The notes under the pieces are model-generated. The model ran no database searches. It saw only the letters and a list, made by a program, of their open reading frames with translations, and was not told the origin of the DNA. This document shows, piece by piece, positions 1,177 to 63,896 of a stretch of DNA of 64,000 nt; within the stretch, counting starts at the first letter, position 1; each line of letters starts with the position of its first letter. The stretch spans positions 640,001 to 704,000 of the forward strand of contig OY969699.1 of the NCBI GenBank assembly GCA_963702025.1. The letters are read 5' to 3'. The position numbers and the translations under genes are program-made. This stretch comes from an uncultured bacterium. GTDB taxonomy: Bacteria; Babelota; Babeliae; Babelales; Vermiphilaceae.

Positions 1177-1695
1177 ATGAAACAGATAGCACATAAAATT
1201 ATGATAGGAATTCTTCTTACGCAAACTCTATCGCTTTCAGCCATGGACTGGTGGTACAGAATTCAGGCAAAATATCCAGAAATTGAAATAAATATAAATA
1301 ATAATTCAAATGATACAAAGCCGGATATAGCATTTGAGATGCACAGGGGCGAATTTAAAGTGCAATGGGACAATCAAACACCGTATGATGTTGTTGTGTA
1401 TCAAAAAGATTCCGAGAACGCGCCCGAAAAAGTAGTTGCTGAAGTTTCTGCACATAGTAAAACAGATTCTTCTATTAAAATTGATTTTGAAAAGACACAA
1501 TTTTCATCAGGTTTATTCACCGCGCTTATTAAATCAGAAAAACCAGTTAAAGTTCCTGTTGAGACAATGTTTACCCAGCCAACCGGGGCAATGTTGAAAA
1601 GTATTTTGAGCACACTAGGAACCAGCAATATGTCTTTACGGCATTATGAGTTTCGTGATTTATATCAAAAGATAATGATAAAACTGCCCCAATAG
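1177..1695 (+). CDS. Secreted hypothetical protein, paralog of 1715..2293
   Basis: ATG at 1177 after AAAGGG; signal peptide ending LSLSA-MD; shares N-x-TP, YQK, F-x-ALIK-x-E-x-P-x-K-x-PVET-x-FT with the next gene. Confidence 0.75.
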   Translation: MKQIAHKIMIGILLTQTLSLSAMDWWYRIQAKYPEIEININNNSNDTKPDIAFEMHRGEFKVQWDNQTPYDVVVYQKDSENAPEKVVAEVSAHSKTDSSIKIDFEKTQFSSGLFTALIKSEKPVKVPVETMFTQPTGAMLKSILSTLGTSNMSLRHYEFRDLYQKIMIKLPQ

Positions 1696-1714
1696 TTTTT
1701 AAAAGGAAAAAGCT

Positions 1715-2293
1715 ATGAGACAAATCAAAACAAAAATAGTAGTTGCCGGTATTCTTTGCATGCAGATGTTAGCGCTCTCTGCGATGCGGGGAGAGCTTGG
1801 TCATGCCCTTTTGAATCAAATTAAGGCCGAGCATTATTCCCGCCATGATAGGATTTTATATGTATTTCCAAATTCTACTATCGAGGAAAAAACTGATGCC
1901 ACTTTAAGATCATACGCTCTGGGTTTCTTAAGATCAATGGAAGCAGGAACCTTTACCATGCAATGTGAAAATTTGACTCCGCATGAAATAATTTTGTACC
2001 AAAAAAATCAGCTTAATGAAGATAAACAGATTGCAGAAATTGCCGCTGGAAAAGCAGCATTTGTACAAATTTCACGGCCTTTGGAAAGTATTAGTTCCGA
2101 TACATTTAGCGCATTGATTAAAGCAGAAGAGCCAATCAAAATACCCGTAGAGACAAATTTTACCAAGCCGGCTGCTCTTATTAAGACTTTCTGCAATATT
2201 TTAAGAGATAATGAGGGCCAAGAACTTGCAACTCAAGTTGAGGATTTAAAAGAGCTTTTAACACGCGTAGTGGTAGAATTGCCAAAATTGTAA
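1715..2293 (+). CDS. Secreted hypothetical protein, paralog of 1177..1695
   Basis: AAGGA RBS; signal peptide ending LALSA-MR; shared motifs as above. Confidence 0.75.
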   Translation: MRQIKTKIVVAGILCMQMLALSAMRGELGHALLNQIKAEHYSRHDRILYVFPNSTIEEKTDATLRSYALGFLRSMEAGTFTMQCENLTPHEIILYQKNQLNEDKQIAEIAAGKAAFVQISRPLESISSDTFSALIKAEEPIKIPVETNFTKPAALIKTFCNILRDNEGQELATQVEDLKELLTRVVVELPKL

Positions 2294-2309
2294 AAATAAT
2301 TTTTATAGA

Positions 2310-3026
2310 CTACTCAACTTGAAGTTGAACCGGCAATGGTTTATCCGAGCCCAAAGTAACCAGTGTTCCGGGCAGCGGGCGTTGATCAACAACCATGCAT
2401 TGTGTACATTGATGGTTTGCGTCATTTTCATAGTGTCGCGTGTGTACGATGGTCGGCACAATATCGTGCAATGACAAGAACGCTACTATTTCATCAAGAG
2501 ATTTTCCAATAAAGCTTGGCATAAGAACCGGTTTGGTGTTGGCGCGGGCCACATAGACAATGATCGGTTTTTCAGAACATAAAGTTCCCGGTTGGGGAAA
2601 CTGTGCAATGCAACTATTATCCGGCGCATCAGCAGGGATACTGTATGTAAGTAATTTTTGCATTTGTTGTTCAACGAGCGCCTGTGCCTCATACTGTGAT
2701 TTTCCCCGTAGATTTGGCGTAACGCTGCCACATTTTTTTTGTGAAATAGTGATATAGATTGTTTGATTTGTTTTAATAATCGTTCCGGGAACCGGTACTT
2801 GAGCTAAAATAGTACCTTCGGGCAGATCAGCATCGTCACGTTTATCAATAATGCGTGCAGTGAGATTTTGTTCATTAAGGGTAATCAGTGCCTTATCAAC
2901 TGTTTTGCCTATAATAGTGGGTGTTGCTATTTTTTTATTGTGATGGAAAAAATTGATAGCCGCATAACCAAGAAGAAAGCTGATAAACGGTGTTACCCAG
3001 AGATATGGTGAAATGCGCGAAAGCAT
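2310..3026 (-). CDS. PASTA-domain membrane protein (about 3 PASTA repeats)
   Basis: N-terminal TM segment; repeats TPTIIGKT...QVPVPGT, TPNLRGKS...QFPQPGT, MPSFIGKS...QRPLPGT. Confidence 0.9.
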   Translation of the reverse strand: MLSRISPYLWVTPFISFLLGYAAINFFHHNKKIATPTIIGKTVDKALITLNEQNLTARIIDKRDDADLPEGTILAQVPVPGTIIKTNQTIYITISQKKCGSVTPNLRGKSQYEAQALVEQQMQKLLTYSIPADAPDNSCIAQFPQPGTLCSEKPIIVYVARANTKPVLMPSFIGKSLDEIVAFLSLHDIVPTIVHTRHYENDANHQCTQCMVVDQRPLPGTLVTLGSDKPLPVQLQVE

Positions 3027-3058
3027 AAGTTCCTTTTGAAAGGGATTGGATAAGTAAG

Positions 3059-3408
3059 ACTAAGGCAAATTATAAGCCGGATTCTGTAGATGCTTACGCA
3101 TCTGACAATCATTTATCTAAGCGACATACCCGCACGTTTTAACCGAAACGAATGATCGAACGTGCCTATTTTGTCTTGCTCCAAGAGGGGCTTGCCCATG
3201 CATGGCATTACTACCTTGCATTGTGCGCTCTTACCGCACTTTTTCACCCTTACCCTAAGCTAGGAATTTAGGGCGGTTATTTTCTGTGGCGCTCTCCGTC
3301 AATCTGTTGCCAAATTGCCCTGGCTTGATCATATCTCTTGCCAGGCTCTTTATTCGTTGGGAGTCCGGACTTTCCTCTGCAAAGCAGCGATTGTCCATTT
3401 GCCTTAGT
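3059..3408 (-). ncRNA. rnpB: RNase P RNA
   Basis: Minus strand has GAGGAAAGTCCGGACTCC near the 5' end and ACAGAATCCGGCTTAT near the 3' end; P1 helix ACTAAGGCAAAT/ATTTGCCTTAGT closes the ends. Confidence 0.95.
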
Positions 3409-61942: not shown

Positions 61943-62497
61943 CTATACAAGCTTTTTCTTGAGAGTATGCTCTGTTAAAATTTCAATTATTTTAAGTCGA
62001 TTTTTTTGAGCGGTAGCATCATCAATATAGGGATAGTATTTATAAAATGGAAAAGATGCAATATCCAAAGCTGTTTTGCCATACTTATTGGTGATAGTGG
62101 GATCTGCTCCGGCATCAAGTAATATTTGTATTATTTCAGGCAAATAATACATAGCTGCCGCCATCAAAGCGGTCTGCTCGGTCTGCGGATTTTTAAGGTT
62201 TATATTCGCACCGGCTGCTATGAGTTTTTTTACAATGTTTGGCCTATTTAAATGGACAGCAAAAATCAAAGGAGAATCGTCTGATTTTGTGCTTAACTGG
62301 TCAAGATCAAGGCCTGCATTAATATATAGTTGTACTTTATCAGCATCATCTATCAATATAGCGGTAAATAATTCATGAAACTGGTTTTCATTGGCGTGCT
62401 TTTTGCCTCTTTTGGCCGGTTCCATAGCAAAATGCACGTTCATCATATGGCATAATGAGGTGGTTATTATTATTGTCTTTATAAGATTTTTCATCAT
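61943..62497 (-). CDS. Secreted ankyrin-repeat protein
   Basis: Leader HFA-ME; SPLIFAV, TALMAAA, GKTALDIA. Confidence 0.9.
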   Translation of the reverse strand: MMKNLIKTIIITTSLCHMMNVHFAMEPAKRGKKHANENQFHELFTAILIDDADKVQLYINAGLDLDQLSTKSDDSPLIFAVHLNRPNIVKKLIAAGANINLKNPQTEQTALMAAAMYYLPEIIQILLDAGADPTITNKYGKTALDIASFPFYKYYPYIDDATAQKNRLKIIEILTEHTLKKKLV

Positions 62498-62647
62498 TTC
62501 TCCATTAAAAAATATTTATACTGCTTACAACTATTTTATATGAAATATTTTCAAATAAGCAATAGTATTTTTGGAAAAAGAGGATTTTTTTAAATTTTGC
62601 TGATGGTGTAAGCCAAAAGCGATACATTCAAGAATGGAAAGAGAAAT

Positions 62648-63187
62648 TTAGCGGTCACCCATTTTTATAGAGTTATTTTTGTCTGTTTCATTTTTAAAGT
62701 TGAATACTTCATTAATTTCATTAATGAGGCCATTGTCATTACAAATCAGCTTTTTCATTACCACAATAGTGCCTTTCTTTTGTGTTGGTATCTGAAAATG
62801 CGCGATAACCATATTTTCTTCGACGCTGGCAATTGGTATATCTTCTTCAATAACAGACCAGATCCCCACATCGTTTTTTGCTGAACTAATCTGGTCGTAG
62901 AGTTCTTTTATTGTTGTTGCCACTGGGATTCTTCCCTCAAGATTATGACAGTCATTTACGAATTTCTTAATGTCGGGTGCAAAAAGCGCCTTCATGGTGG
63001 GCAGCAAATCGCCAGTTTCCTCTTGGCCGAATTGAGTTAAAAACTTATGGTAGCGTTCTGCAACTGCTTTTAAATAATGAGCTTTCGCAACATATTCTTC
63101 ATATGATGTAGGCCTTTTGCTTTCCATTGAAAAGCACGACCCATGCAAAAAAACTATACTCAATAGTGATAAAATTATTTTATTCAT
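62648..63187 (-). CDS. Secreted protein, possibly NTF2/SnoaL-like
   Basis: Signal CFS-ME; LFAPD and GLINEINEVFN resemble an NTF2-like fold. Confidence 0.55.
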   Translation of the reverse strand: MNKIILSLLSIVFLHGSCFSMESKRPTSYEEYVAKAHYLKAVAERYHKFLTQFGQEETGDLLPTMKALFAPDIKKFVNDCHNLEGRIPVATTIKELYDQISSAKNDVGIWSVIEEDIPIASVEENMVIAHFQIPTQKKGTIVVMKKLICNDNGLINEINEVFNFKNETDKNNSIKMGDR

Positions 63188-63207
63188 TGTGTTCCTTATA
63201 TTTAATT

Positions 63208-63543
63208 TCATTTATCATGTATTTCTTCAATAAAAATTTTCTTATGATACCCACCGCGTACTTTGAATTTCTCCGCACGCACTTTTTCTAATTCTTCCAT
63301 CGATCCGGTAATGATGGGCGCAAGCGCATTAATCACTTCTTGAATATCGGCGAGCTCCTCAGGAATGGGATTTTCTAAGAATTCTTTCACCTCTTCCTGA
63401 AGCTTATTATAGAGCGCAACTTTATATTCATCATCGGATAAAATGTGCGTGATTGCTTTGCCACCTTTGGCGGCAAGGTTTTCATGGATATTATCACGGC
63501 CCAATTTGTTGAGGACTCTTATTTTACTTGGTTTGTTGGTCAT
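63208..63543 (-). CDS. MazG-like nucleoside triphosphate pyrophosphohydrolase (PRA-PH family)
   Basis: NKLGRDNI, KLQEEVKEF, EELADIQEV, K...RGGY. Confidence 0.85.
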   Translation of the reverse strand: MTNKPSKIRVLNKLGRDNIHENLAAKGGKAITHILSDDEYKVALYNKLQEEVKEFLENPIPEELADIQEVINALAPIITGSMEELEKVRAEKFKVRGGYHKKIFIEEIHDK

Positions 63544-63896
63544 TATTTTAATAACCCCTTGCGTTTTTGAAGTCGCCAGACTTTACCAAATGAGTACATA
63601 CTCAATAGGAATGATGAACCGGTAAAGAAGGCAGAAGTGCCGGTGAAGGTGTCGAATGCGGACTGCGGTTTTTGGCCGCCGGAGGACCACCATTCTAGCC
63701 CATCAAATACCGGCCCAAGAGTGGTGGTAAAGGCGCCGAAGGTGAGGGTGCTGGCTGCTGCTGCAGTGCCGAGTGTGCCAAAGCCAATTTGTTTTAAGAG
63801 TAAGACTCTTTTTTGCGCCGGATTTGCCATACCATTGAGCAGGGTGCTATTTGAAGCACAAAGAATGATGGTGATTGCCAGGAGTTTAAATTTCAT
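63543..63896 (-). CDS. Secreted/membrane hypothetical protein
   Basis: AAGGA RBS; leader LNG-MA; two hydrophobic segments. Confidence 0.6.
   Translation of the reverse strand: MKFKLLAITIILCASNSTLLNGMANPAQKRVLLLKQIGFGTLGTAAAASTLTFGAFTTTLGPVFDGLEWWSSGGQKPQSAFDTFTGTSAFFTGSSFLLSMYSFGKVWRLQKRKGLLK

Follow-up and report, generated by a model that had tools for sequence, protein, structure and literature searches.

Methionine directly after the signal peptide marks predicted host-type cargo in a Babeliota parasite

The closest precedent for the pattern described here is the Q-rule of the Bacteroidetes, and common to both is a lineage-wide preference for a single residue after the signal peptidase I site (PMC5837995). 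In that paper the residue is Gln, a dedicated enzyme cyclises it, and periplasmic and exported proteins carry it alike; its authors suggest shielding from host proteases and argue against a role in sorting (PMC5837995). Here, by contrast, Met takes that place, a modifying enzyme need not be assumed and the preference is selective for host-type cargo: Gln does not stand at +1 of most substrates, and housekeeping envelope proteins are largely left out (2-3 of 15 have the Met). Plasmodium offers a second comparison. Proteins with its PEXEL motif (RxLxE/Q/D) are processed to an acetylated xE/Q/D N-terminus in a eukaryotic ER pathway that uses plasmepsin V and the PTEX translocon. In both cases a vacuolar parasite's exported proteins have an acidic or amide residue at mature position 2; in ours RxL is absent (Arg is outside the eight commonest −3 residues of the Met class), the cut appears to be a plain signal-peptidase cut, and Met alone occupies position 1.

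A third comparison comes from host cells themselves. N-degron residues are often exposed by signal-peptide cleavage and matter once the protein is in the cytoplasm, as with arginylated BiP, likewise a signal-peptidase-made N-terminus facing cytosolic N-degron ligases, and starts with Met-hydrophobic, Pro, Gly or Ala can act as degrons too (PMC8037982). In BiP-type cases host proteins are degraded, whereas here a bacterium appears to avoid degradation across hundreds of genes. In cargo and probable route (Sec plus type II), the ankyrin secretomes known from Babela massiliensis and from Chromulinavorax destructans resemble the one described here; 79 of 126 ankyrin proteins of the former and 78% of those of the latter have signal peptides. 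In the main texts of the two papers the word "methionine" is absent, and the relevant passages do not discuss the +1 residue (PMC4378268, PMC6561590). The secretin gene gspD is present in two copies in 7/7 TM6 genomes (PMC4776705), and the genome studied here also encodes a type II system, with two secretins as well as a T2SSC protein near G000:365535-373997. Literature searches found no description of the +1 Met pattern.

The window, that is, the whole 64-kb stretch analysed, comes from a Babeliota (Dependentiae/TM6) parasite of protists. A first-pass annotation had claimed about 26 ORFs in which a Sec leader is followed directly by Met, and 26 is what we count: 24 by script, together with 57036-57446 and 61943-62497 from outside the script's list. 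All 20 of the coordinates it quoted are the first ATG of their frame, and in each the hydrophobic leader ends as described and is followed by Met. About 13 further leader-bearing ORFs are without the Met, and the TPR protein is among them, as had been stated (Table 1). A Pfam scan of 38 window ORFs placed five ankyrin proteins and four WD40-type propellers among the Met ORFs, along with one ubiquitin-like match that is weak (E 9e-4, below cut-off); the ORF at 33091-33690, previously described as a zinc-finger protein, had zero Pfam matches.

Table 1. Leader-bearing ORFs of the window, with the residues on either side of the putative cut and the position of the Met codon
Position	Strand	Feature	Junction	Met codon	Basis
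1177..1695	+	172-aa secreted ORF; no Pfam family	LSA-MD	1243-1245	
1715..2293	+	192-aa secreted ORF	LSA-MR	1784-1786	
8780..9238	+	152-aa secreted ORF	VKG-MQ	8849-8851	
9247..9672	+	141-aa secreted ORF; site uncertain		candidates 9295 and 9304	
11538..13082	-	Control: leader-bearing TPR protein	IQA-NE	no Met at site	Pfam
16643..17188	-	181-aa secreted ORF	SFG-MT	17123-17125	
17338..19182	+	614-aa WD40 protein	NYG-MEMP	17395-17397	Pfam
24241..25446	-	401-aa secreted ORF	SSG-MELP	25381-25383	
31578..32042	+	154-aa secreted ORF	SNA-ME	31635-31637	
33091..33690	-	199-aa Cys/His-containing secreted ORF; no Pfam match	LQG-MEKP	33625-33627	
36323..37786	-	487-aa secreted ORF	ICS-MQ	37736-37738	
40840..41184	+	114-aa secreted ORF	ICA-MEK	40897-40899	
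42617..43156	+	179-aa ankyrin protein	ITA-MQ	42674-42676	Pfam
43230..44000	+	256-aa ankyrin protein	LLG-MY	43290-43292	Pfam
45413..48589	-	1058-aa WD40-type propeller protein	SFP-MEMP	48518-48520	Pfam
49280..50728	-	482-aa propeller-like protein	LVS-MEMP	50675-50677	Pfam
50907..52913	+	668-aa propeller-like protein	IYA-MEQ	50955-50957	Pfam
53234..54079	+	Control: GNAT acetyltransferase with leader	TYA-HK	no Met	Pfam
54222..54644	-	140-aa secreted ORF	VNG-MEE	54579-54581	
56142..57014	-	290-aa ankyrin protein	LCA-MEK	56961-56963	Pfam
57036..57446	-	136-aa secreted ORF	SAA-ML	57390-57392	
57446..58144	-	232-aa ankyrin protein	LQA-MT	58088-58090	Pfam
58201..58974	-	DdpX (M15 D-Ala-D-Ala dipeptidase); outside the rule	CHA-MS		Pfam, homologue comparison
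60357..60746	-	129-aa weakly ubiquitin-like protein	GFA-MQ	60687-60689	Pfam
61605..61877	-	90-aa secreted ORF	AQA-MV	61815-61817	
61943..62497	-	184-aa ankyrin protein	HFA-MEP	62423-62425	Pfam
62648..63187	-	179-aa secreted ORF	CFS-MES	63125-63127	
63543..63896	-	117-aa secreted ORF	LNG-MA	63828-63830	

Across the whole genome, our own filter (basic n-region, hydrophobic core, about 16-26 residues) found a Sec leader and then Met in about 360 of the 1546 called genes, with leader lengths that peak at 18-21 residues and proteins that fall into 215 unrelated clusters. When cleavage was predicted with a method blind to Met, the residue after the cut was Met for 139 of the 527 strict leaders (Gln for 29) and for 196 of 767 loose ones, as against 1.6% in mature regions, and the predicted cut coincided exactly with the Met in 192 of the 361 Met-class leaders. 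This excess is not due to chance.

Which proteins carry the Met? Leader-bearing ankyrin proteins do in 103 of 118 cases and envelope proteins in 2-3 of 15 (p ~1e-7), and eukaryote-type Pfam domains occur in 42 of the 150 Met-class proteins scanned versus 6 of 150 non-Met ones; 91 of those 150 Met-class proteins belong to no Pfam family. Judged by domain content, host-type cargo is marked by +1 Met and envelope proteins mostly are not, and the enrichment check suggested by the first-pass annotation thus comes out with the Met rare among housekeeping envelope proteins. Its claim that all ankyrin proteins have the Met does not extend to the genome: 15 of the 118 lack it, as does one of five RING proteins; for about five of those ankyrin proteins the predicted first residue is D, E, Q, K or L. 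DdpX, which had been named as a housekeeping case with the Met, we place outside the rule, for among 117 homologues the position is Leu, Ile or Met, with Met in 16. The genome also holds at least ten leader-bearing GNATs; in a PDB search with two of them, one was unmatched and the other matched small-molecule acetyltransferases, not N-terminal ones.

Could the Met be nothing more than a second place to begin translation? The second ATG is in frame, strong Shine-Dalgarno sites are missing from many genes of this genome (42% of leaderless genes have one), and Ala-Met-Glu codons match a Kozak context by chance, so one might imagine an alternative start that yields a cytoplasmic form. Of the first ATGs, however, 70% have a Shine-Dalgarno score of at least 2.2 in front of them, compared with 2.9% for internal ATGs and 0 of 258 for the second ATGs; the bases upstream are A-poor (0.22 vs 0.42) and more folded (−5.8 vs −2.2 kcal/mol); GTG or TTG replaces the second ATG in 0 of 13 cases; and a Kozak bias would also enrich +2 for Ala, Val and Gly, which together reach only 22 of 361. 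An internal start, which the earlier annotation had allowed might undo its case, is not borne out, since there is no ribosome-binding site at the second ATG, and we consider it extremely unlikely.

The residues around the Met point instead to a site of the signal peptidase I type, where the first-pass annotation had placed it. The −3 residue is L, A, S, I, V, T, C or G in 329 of 361 Met-class leaders, and one of A, G, S, P, C or T precedes 262 of 268 first sites of Met followed by E, D, Q or N (−1 unfiltered), where the local frequency of that set is 40%. Some −1 residues of the Met class are unusual (Pro in 22, Cys in 18 and Thr in 18 of 361), as they might be if the Babeliota peptidase cut better before Met and Met aided weak leaders, but the genome's single signal peptidase I has about 257 non-Met leaders to process as well, BamA included, and a processing aid would explain neither the +2 Glu nor the association with cargo of the ankyrin, WD40 and LRR kinds; it seems to us very unlikely. 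Codon use in Met-class leaders is genomic and the 215 clusters have no DNA in common, and the constraint therefore acts on the protein.

Downstream of the Met, Glu is at +2 in 188 of 361 leaders (52%, vs 12.5% of non-Met leaders), and two classes are depleted there: small residues (47/361, 13%, vs 34%) and Leu, Ile, Phe, Trp or Tyr (23/361, 6%, vs 25%). Lys at +3 (84/361) and Pro at +4 (99/361, and 24/57 in the genome G006) extend this in the genus to a longer consensus (MEKP 24, MELP 18, MEMP 17). The NatB substrate set is MD, ME, MN and MQ, and 261 of 361 Met-class leaders have such a +2 residue. The earlier emphasis on NatB-type starts stands in part: Glu alone is clearly enriched, Asp and Asn are not in this genome, and in Babela four of ten ankyrins lie outside the set, with starts that include MK, MR, MI and MH. 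NatB, moreover, works mainly at the ribosome, so that a folded protein would not necessarily be acetylated after delivery.

One might also suppose that the Met is a functionless relic, the codon at which the gene once started before a signal peptide was added in front. A cytoplasmic-type HD hydrolase (G000:200702) looks just like this, with ME after a gained leader and the Met near the start of its homologues, 52 of 55 of which are leaderless and cytoplasmic, and leader gain ahead of an old start may well be the origin of some Met cases. As a reason for keeping the Met it is largely refuted, and we think it quite unlikely: just 44 of the 696 leaderless genes have Glu as residue 2; Gmd, Ugd, WecB, AhpC and thioredoxins, normally cytoplasmic proteins that gained a leader and seem to serve the envelope, are without Met at the site; and in comparison with G006 the Met class is kept in 13 of 19 Met pairs of orthologues versus 3 of 26 non-Met pairs, diverged orthologues retaining it while neighbouring residues change.

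The +1 Met rule, as far as predicted leaders tell, is one that recurs across Babeliota. In five relatives Met follows 19 of 21 ankyrin leaders versus 74 of 212 others, and among the first ten published Babela ankyrins all ten have +1 Met and nine are SignalP-positive; Asp at +2 is common in relatives (16/93; 7/21). A weaker form appears in a Paracaedibacteraceae-like alphaproteobacterial order, which points to convergence in an unrelated lineage, and recurrence in another phylum would fit pressure from a shared host side. In G030 the pattern is faint or missing (3/25 by rule, 0 by blind prediction), as it is in G384, in G483 and in the order to which Holospora obtusa belongs, and the LRR proteins of G209 are divided, two with Met and two without.

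What, then, might a single residue do? We think it somewhat more likely than not that +1 Met masks an N-degron: without it, the cut by signal peptidase would leave one exposed in the host cytosol. Translation of host-directed proteins would begin at the first ATG; the proteins would pass through the inner membrane by Sec, be cut directly before the Met by the one signal peptidase I (as the −3/−1 pattern suggests) and leave through a secretin-type (type II) channel, and some, to judge from RING, IBR, ubiquitin-like, WD40, LRR and ankyrin domains, would reach the protist cytosol. There, Asp, Glu, Gln, Asn, Lys, Arg or a bulky hydrophobic residue at +1 would be an N-degron, and selection would favour Met at +1 and mostly Glu at +2, which would keep the Met on and avoid a Met-hydrophobic degron, leaving a mature effector that resembles an ordinary host cytosolic protein. 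That +2 avoids both risky classes speaks for N-degron avoidance. Envelope proteins would be free at +1 because they never meet the host machinery; 160 of 257 non-Met leaders are predicted to expose a destabilising residue. Of the two readings first offered, an export code or a host-like N-terminus, the data favour the host-like, degron-free end.

Several observations nonetheless sit uneasily with N-degron avoidance. The classic N-end rule should tolerate Ser, Thr or Val at +1 as well, and yet Met dominates; Lys at +3 and Pro at +4 exceed what degron avoidance needs; and there are the non-Met ankyrins and RING protein, the divided LRR set and the weak or absent lineages. At the step of entry into the cytosol, the vacuolar growth of Babela and its type II system alone (PMC4378268) also weigh against it.

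The main rival would make Met-Glu an address tag, read at the cut N-terminus by a receptor in the periplasm or at the vacuole membrane that sorts proteins into secretion or translocation, much as the processed PEXEL end serves for sorting in Plasmodium. The strict use of Met instead of any stabilising residue, the longer consensus of the genus with its Pro at +4, the ME on the HD hydrolase and the secretins of both lineages (two here, while 59 of the 62 genomes in G209's order have one or more) are all what such a tag would lead one to expect. But +4 Pro is nearly missing beyond the genus (2/21 in the alphaproteobacteria) and +2 is variable, type II secretion signals are generally conformational, and the same tag in two phyla needs a receptor shared or invented twice; we regard the tag as possible, if on the unlikely side. 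More doubtful is that Met-Glu is a true address code, carrying hundreds of folded effectors, in two phyla of protist parasites, by Sec and secretin across the vacuole membrane into the host cytosol and shielding them there from N-degron ligases besides. Were that so, bacteria would have an analogue of PEXEL export, and a way of delivering proteins to the host that needs no needle of type III, IV or VI.

The Babeliota form an entire phylum of obligate intracellular parasites; their large secretomes consist of unknown proteins, and type II is the only secretion system they have. A rule that tells host-directed proteins from those of the envelope by a single residue would allow effectors to be listed from sequence alone, and it makes testable two larger questions: by what means do bacterial proteins exported by Sec get into the eukaryotic cytosol or persist there, and has the host N-degron system shaped the proteomes of its parasites?

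What concerns us here is one residue: the Met that stands directly after the predicted signal peptidase I site (position +1) in many Sec-leader proteins of this genome (G000; one contig, C1, of 1.596 Mb and 39% GC). Of the homologues of the window's DdpX, the two with an organism label bear the names Babeliales and TM6, and all 151 genomes drawn from the phylum belong to a single order; on these grounds, we assign the organism to the Babeliota (Dependentiae), a phylum of obligate protist parasites. It encodes three ATP/ADP translocases, one signal peptidase I, and two secretins with a T2SSC protein. 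Within the window, all 20 positions quoted in the first-pass annotation are ORF start codons, each opening a hydrophobic leader that ends in the residues quoted and then Met, and the roughly 26 ORFs of this kind that it had claimed are indeed 26 (24 by script and two more), beside about 13 leader ORFs without Met. Among 38 window proteins searched with Pfam, the Met class held five ankyrin proteins, four WD40-type propellers, and one weak ubiquitin-like match.

For the whole genome, we took 1546 genes from a gene caller written for this analysis and an equally self-written leader predictor, with a loose filter (767 proteins, which we judged too loose) and a strict one (527). A home-made cleavage-site predictor that ignores residue +1 nevertheless placed Met there in 196 of the 767 and 139 of the 527; Met makes up 1.6% of mature regions. 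A direct definition gives a Met class of 361 proteins, set against 257 leaders without Met. Because the class is defined by possession of Met, it has both false positives (the loose rule took in Skp, BamD, a GMC oxidoreductase, and a secretin) and misses (10 ankyrin proteins, added by eye). Among leaders of unrelated bacteria, 11 of 158 satisfy the rule, so that a few tens of these 361 proteins are probably false; a fair range for the true size is about 330–370. A DNA pattern for MK...ME gave 102 matches, 93 of them in frame (expected, one third). The site is also of the expected kind: with −1 unfiltered, 262 of 268 first Met-(E/D/Q/N) sites are preceded by A, G, S, P, C, or T, residues with a local frequency of 40%, and a small or aliphatic residue fills −3 in 329 of 361, which is the pattern of signal peptidase I.

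After the Met, residue +2 is Glu in 188 of the 361 (Gln 37, Asn 18, and Asp 18), Lys stands at +3 in 84, and Pro is enriched at +4 (99) and lies below its local 8.7% at +3 (19). Small residues occupy +2 in 13% of the Met class vs. 34% of non-Met leaders, and bulky hydrophobics in 6% vs. 25%. Is this a property of the protein or of the DNA beneath it? The class falls into 215 BLAST clusters, and an ME start is found in 84 of 185 singletons; codons of the motif track genome-wide usage, and leader DNA identity (0.336) sits at the control level (0.333), so the motif is not a copied cassette. The internal translation start that the first-pass annotation had raised as an alternative fares no better: a strong Shine–Dalgarno sequence precedes none of 258 second ATGs vs. 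70% of first ATGs, the context of the second ATG is A-poor and more folded, and GTG or TTG replaced it in none of 13 candidate sites. A Kozak effect is likewise rejected, with Gly and Ser codons before Met equal to those of internal pairs (p 0.41 and 0.18) and only a slight difference for Ala codons (p 0.02). The constraint acts at the protein level.

The rule is also selective for host-directed secreted proteins. A local HMM finds 120 ankyrin genes in the genome, and Met is present in 103 (93 by script and 10 by eye) of the 118 that bear a leader, the other two being one ambiguous case and one fragment; genome-wide, then, most leader-bearing ankyrin proteins carry Met and 15 do not, whereas the first-pass annotation gave it to all complete ones in the window. 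All six complete WD40 proteins found from one seed have it, and so do LRR (8/8), RING (4/5), and C2H2-like (3/3) proteins. When 150 of 375 loosely defined Met-class proteins and 150 of 257 non-Met proteins were scanned, eukaryote-type Pfam domains appeared in 42 vs. 6. Met is scarce, as the proposal required, in envelope housekeeping proteins: two clear cases among 15, with BamD doubtful (2–3/15, an itemized count that replaces a provisional 2/20). That set comprises BamA, BamD, Skp, Pal, two secretins, a SurA-like protein (below cut-off), SBP3, an amidase, NamZ, GH3, M23, two DdpX, and a beta-lactamase-family protein; three of the 15 are lipoproteins, with an obligatory Cys at +1. A DegP-like and one SurA-like protein are membrane anchored and uninformative for +1, and no TolB_N, peptidase S11, or SBP_bac_5 protein turned up when G000 was searched for them. 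The window's DdpX, first offered as a housekeeping counter-case, is no real exception: in 117 aligned homologues out of 120, the corresponding position is Leu in 67, Ile in 34, and Met in 16. The beta-lactamase-family envelope protein, with ME, stays an exception.

Individual features are located in the table below. Leader-bearing GNAT acetyltransferases number at least 10 (three in the window and seven more in loci L002–L031); for one, the structural matches are to serotonin N-acetyltransferases (E 2e-11), another has no PDB match, and a locus search found no relatives of one of the window proteins. Sec-type leaders without Met occur on normally cytoplasmic nucleotide-sugar and glycan enzymes (loci L038, L008, and L024)—GDP-mannose dehydratase, UDP-glucose dehydrogenase, UDP-GlcNAc epimerase, two GT17, TylF and FkbM methyltransferases, and a sulfotransferase—which suggests that glycan synthesis has shifted outside the cytoplasm.

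Locations of individual features (Gxxx, genomes; Lxxx, sampled loci)
Feature	Location
GNAT acetyltransferases with leaders	window 53234-54079, 55197-55760, 59000-59827
684-aa leader protein, DUF294 nucleotidyltransferase domain, non-Met class	window 13843-15897
Two overlapping ORFs, presumably resembling a split IS630-type transposase	window 7500-8382 (-)
HD-domain, ppGpp-hydrolase-like protein (HD hydrolase)	G000:C1:200702; L010:15260-16003
Two adjacent ankyrin + IBR (RBR-type ubiquitin ligase-like) proteins, each leader-ME	L004:7085-10316
Tandem ankyrin paralogues, common mature start MHLYQQ	G000:C1:1354236-1363423
Leader-bearing glycan enzymes	G000:C1:1549431, 165200, 1545371, 499759, 500721
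Beta-lactamase-family proteins with leader-ME or leader-MD	G000, L004:61-1140; alphaproteobacterium G384, L237:3121-4746
Secreted-protein cluster (family f13), Pro/Arg-rich starts in place of Met	L064 (G030:C1:180001-200000)
Leader-ME protein with flagellin N-terminal domain (E 5e-10)	G209, L216:8917-9660

How far does the rule extend? In reciprocal best pairs with G006, a genome of the same genus (400 kb sampled), Met is kept in 13 of 19 Met-class pairs vs. 3 of 26 non-Met pairs at identities of 23–67%, and three of the six discordant Met-class pairs look like false positives of our own rule. The HD hydrolase has gained a leader and ME, both kept in three close homologues while the linker that follows varies; 52 other homologues, Bacteroidota and Salinibacter proteins among them, are leaderless. 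In 100-kb samples of four other Babeliota, the rule holds for 10/30 (G028), 11/27 (G098), 12/31 (G016), and 3/25 (G030) leaders, and over these and G006 together, Met is found in 19 of 21 ankyrin proteins vs. 74 of 212 leader proteins of other kinds. In the Babela massiliensis ankyrin table of 126 rows (PMC4378268, supplement file 9), each of the first 10 is leader-then-Met, nine of them SignalP-positive, with Glu at +2 in four and Arg, Asn, Gln, Lys, Ile, or His in the others. Pattern counts in 151 genomes of the phylum run from 2 to 116, the lower ones indistinguishable from noise; by our tally, 35 genomes in six families exceed 30, which is the maximum in the order of Holospora obtusa (22 genomes). 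The reversed-pattern control was too weak (that order gave 1–30 matches, mostly non-leaders), and we therefore used reading frame and fetched DNA instead. Met is the phylum-wide part of the motif, and Pro at +4 is confined to the genus of G000. The Pro/Arg-rich starts of family f13 are possibly a different N-terminal convention. Another genome, G167, has conserved pattern matches in common with Babeliota and many leader-ME genes (locus L164) and probably belongs to the phylum.

A second lineage emerged among the Alphaproteobacteria. A tighter pattern, one that matches 41 times in G000, was run on 401 genomes (including the unpublished G418 and G226, both used in this tally alone) and reached its top count, 15, in G209. 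By eye, 8 of those 15 are leader-ME, as are 4 of 8 in G348; the matches in G201, G376, and G578 were inspected and are not leaders. Because G209 has a canonical ATP/ADP translocase and its nearest DapA homologues named below class are Paracaedibacteraceae (57–59%), we infer that its order consists of protist endosymbionts. A 400-kb sample of G209 holds 59 leaders, of which 14 carry the Met site, in 12 cases as MD, ME, or MQ. G209, G633, and G628 together give 21/95 vs. 11/158 in other bacteria, or 14/95 vs. 5/158 by the predictor blind to +1 (p ~1e-3). This background is 70 of the 80 loci of a GTDB-wide scan, seed genes removed; the 10 excluded loci were Babeliota-like (five by label and five by judgement), with Met sites in 22 of 35 leaders. 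Across the order, about 47 of the 150 matches listed, in 15 of 21 listed genomes, are in-frame leader-M(E/D) by eye, and a further 368 matches lie outside those 150. The effect in this lineage is real and weaker than in Babeliota. Against a general endosymbiont rule speak two other translocase carriers (G384, 1 plausible case in 17; G483, 0/15), the order of Holospora obtusa, where leader-Met cases are only scattered, and the LRR proteins of G209, two of four without Met. Among 29 rows consulted (of 158) in a Bodocaedibacter SignalP table, none states a cleavage site.

The counts establish the sequence rule, its protein level, its selectivity, and its spread. What might the Met be for? Signal peptidase would cut directly before it, and the proteins would leave through the secretin channel and arrive in the host cytosol, where a Met start may avoid an N-degron. 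According to a review (PMC8037982), removal of a signal peptide often leaves an N-degron residue exposed, BiP with its Glu start is arginylated on reaching the cytoplasm, Met is clipped before small residues and retained before large ones, and degrons can also arise from Met-hydrophobic, Pro, Gly, and Ala starts; another paper describes Pro at +3 as a degron in human cells (PMC11178506). The +2 spectrum, with few small and few bulky hydrophobic residues, fits, and we lean modestly toward avoidance of N-degrons. That Met-Glu is instead an address, read in sorting, seems to us rather unlikely; we grant it that much because Met is used almost exclusively, because the consensus in the genus is longer, and because Babela, as parts of PMC4378268 describe it, lives in a vacuole with a type II system only, leaving the last membrane crossing unaccounted for. 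A Paracaedibacter-like endosymbiont lies free in the cytoplasm, according to sections of PMC8163844, and therefore needs no vacuole-membrane step. Degron avoidance and sorting are mutually compatible.

If the sorting reading is correct, PEXEL processing is a functional analogue. The nearest precedent for a lineage-wide +1 residue is the Q-rule of Bacteroidetes, which differs in using Gln, requiring a cyclase, and including periplasmic proteins (PMC5837995). The Met rule is outside both definitions. Large signal-peptide ankyrin secretomes have already been published for Babela and Chromulinavorax (parts of PMC4378268 and PMC6561590), and no title or abstract that we found describes, for these bacteria, a Met following the signal peptide, although supplements or subscription papers could hold one; “methionine” is absent from the main-text portions seen of PMC6561590, PMC4776705, PMC4378268, PMC8163844, and bioRxiv 719211. 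The Met rule is real, large, and protein level; in a parasitic phylum, it picks out secreted proteins directed at the host, and a weaker form recurs in a distant one.
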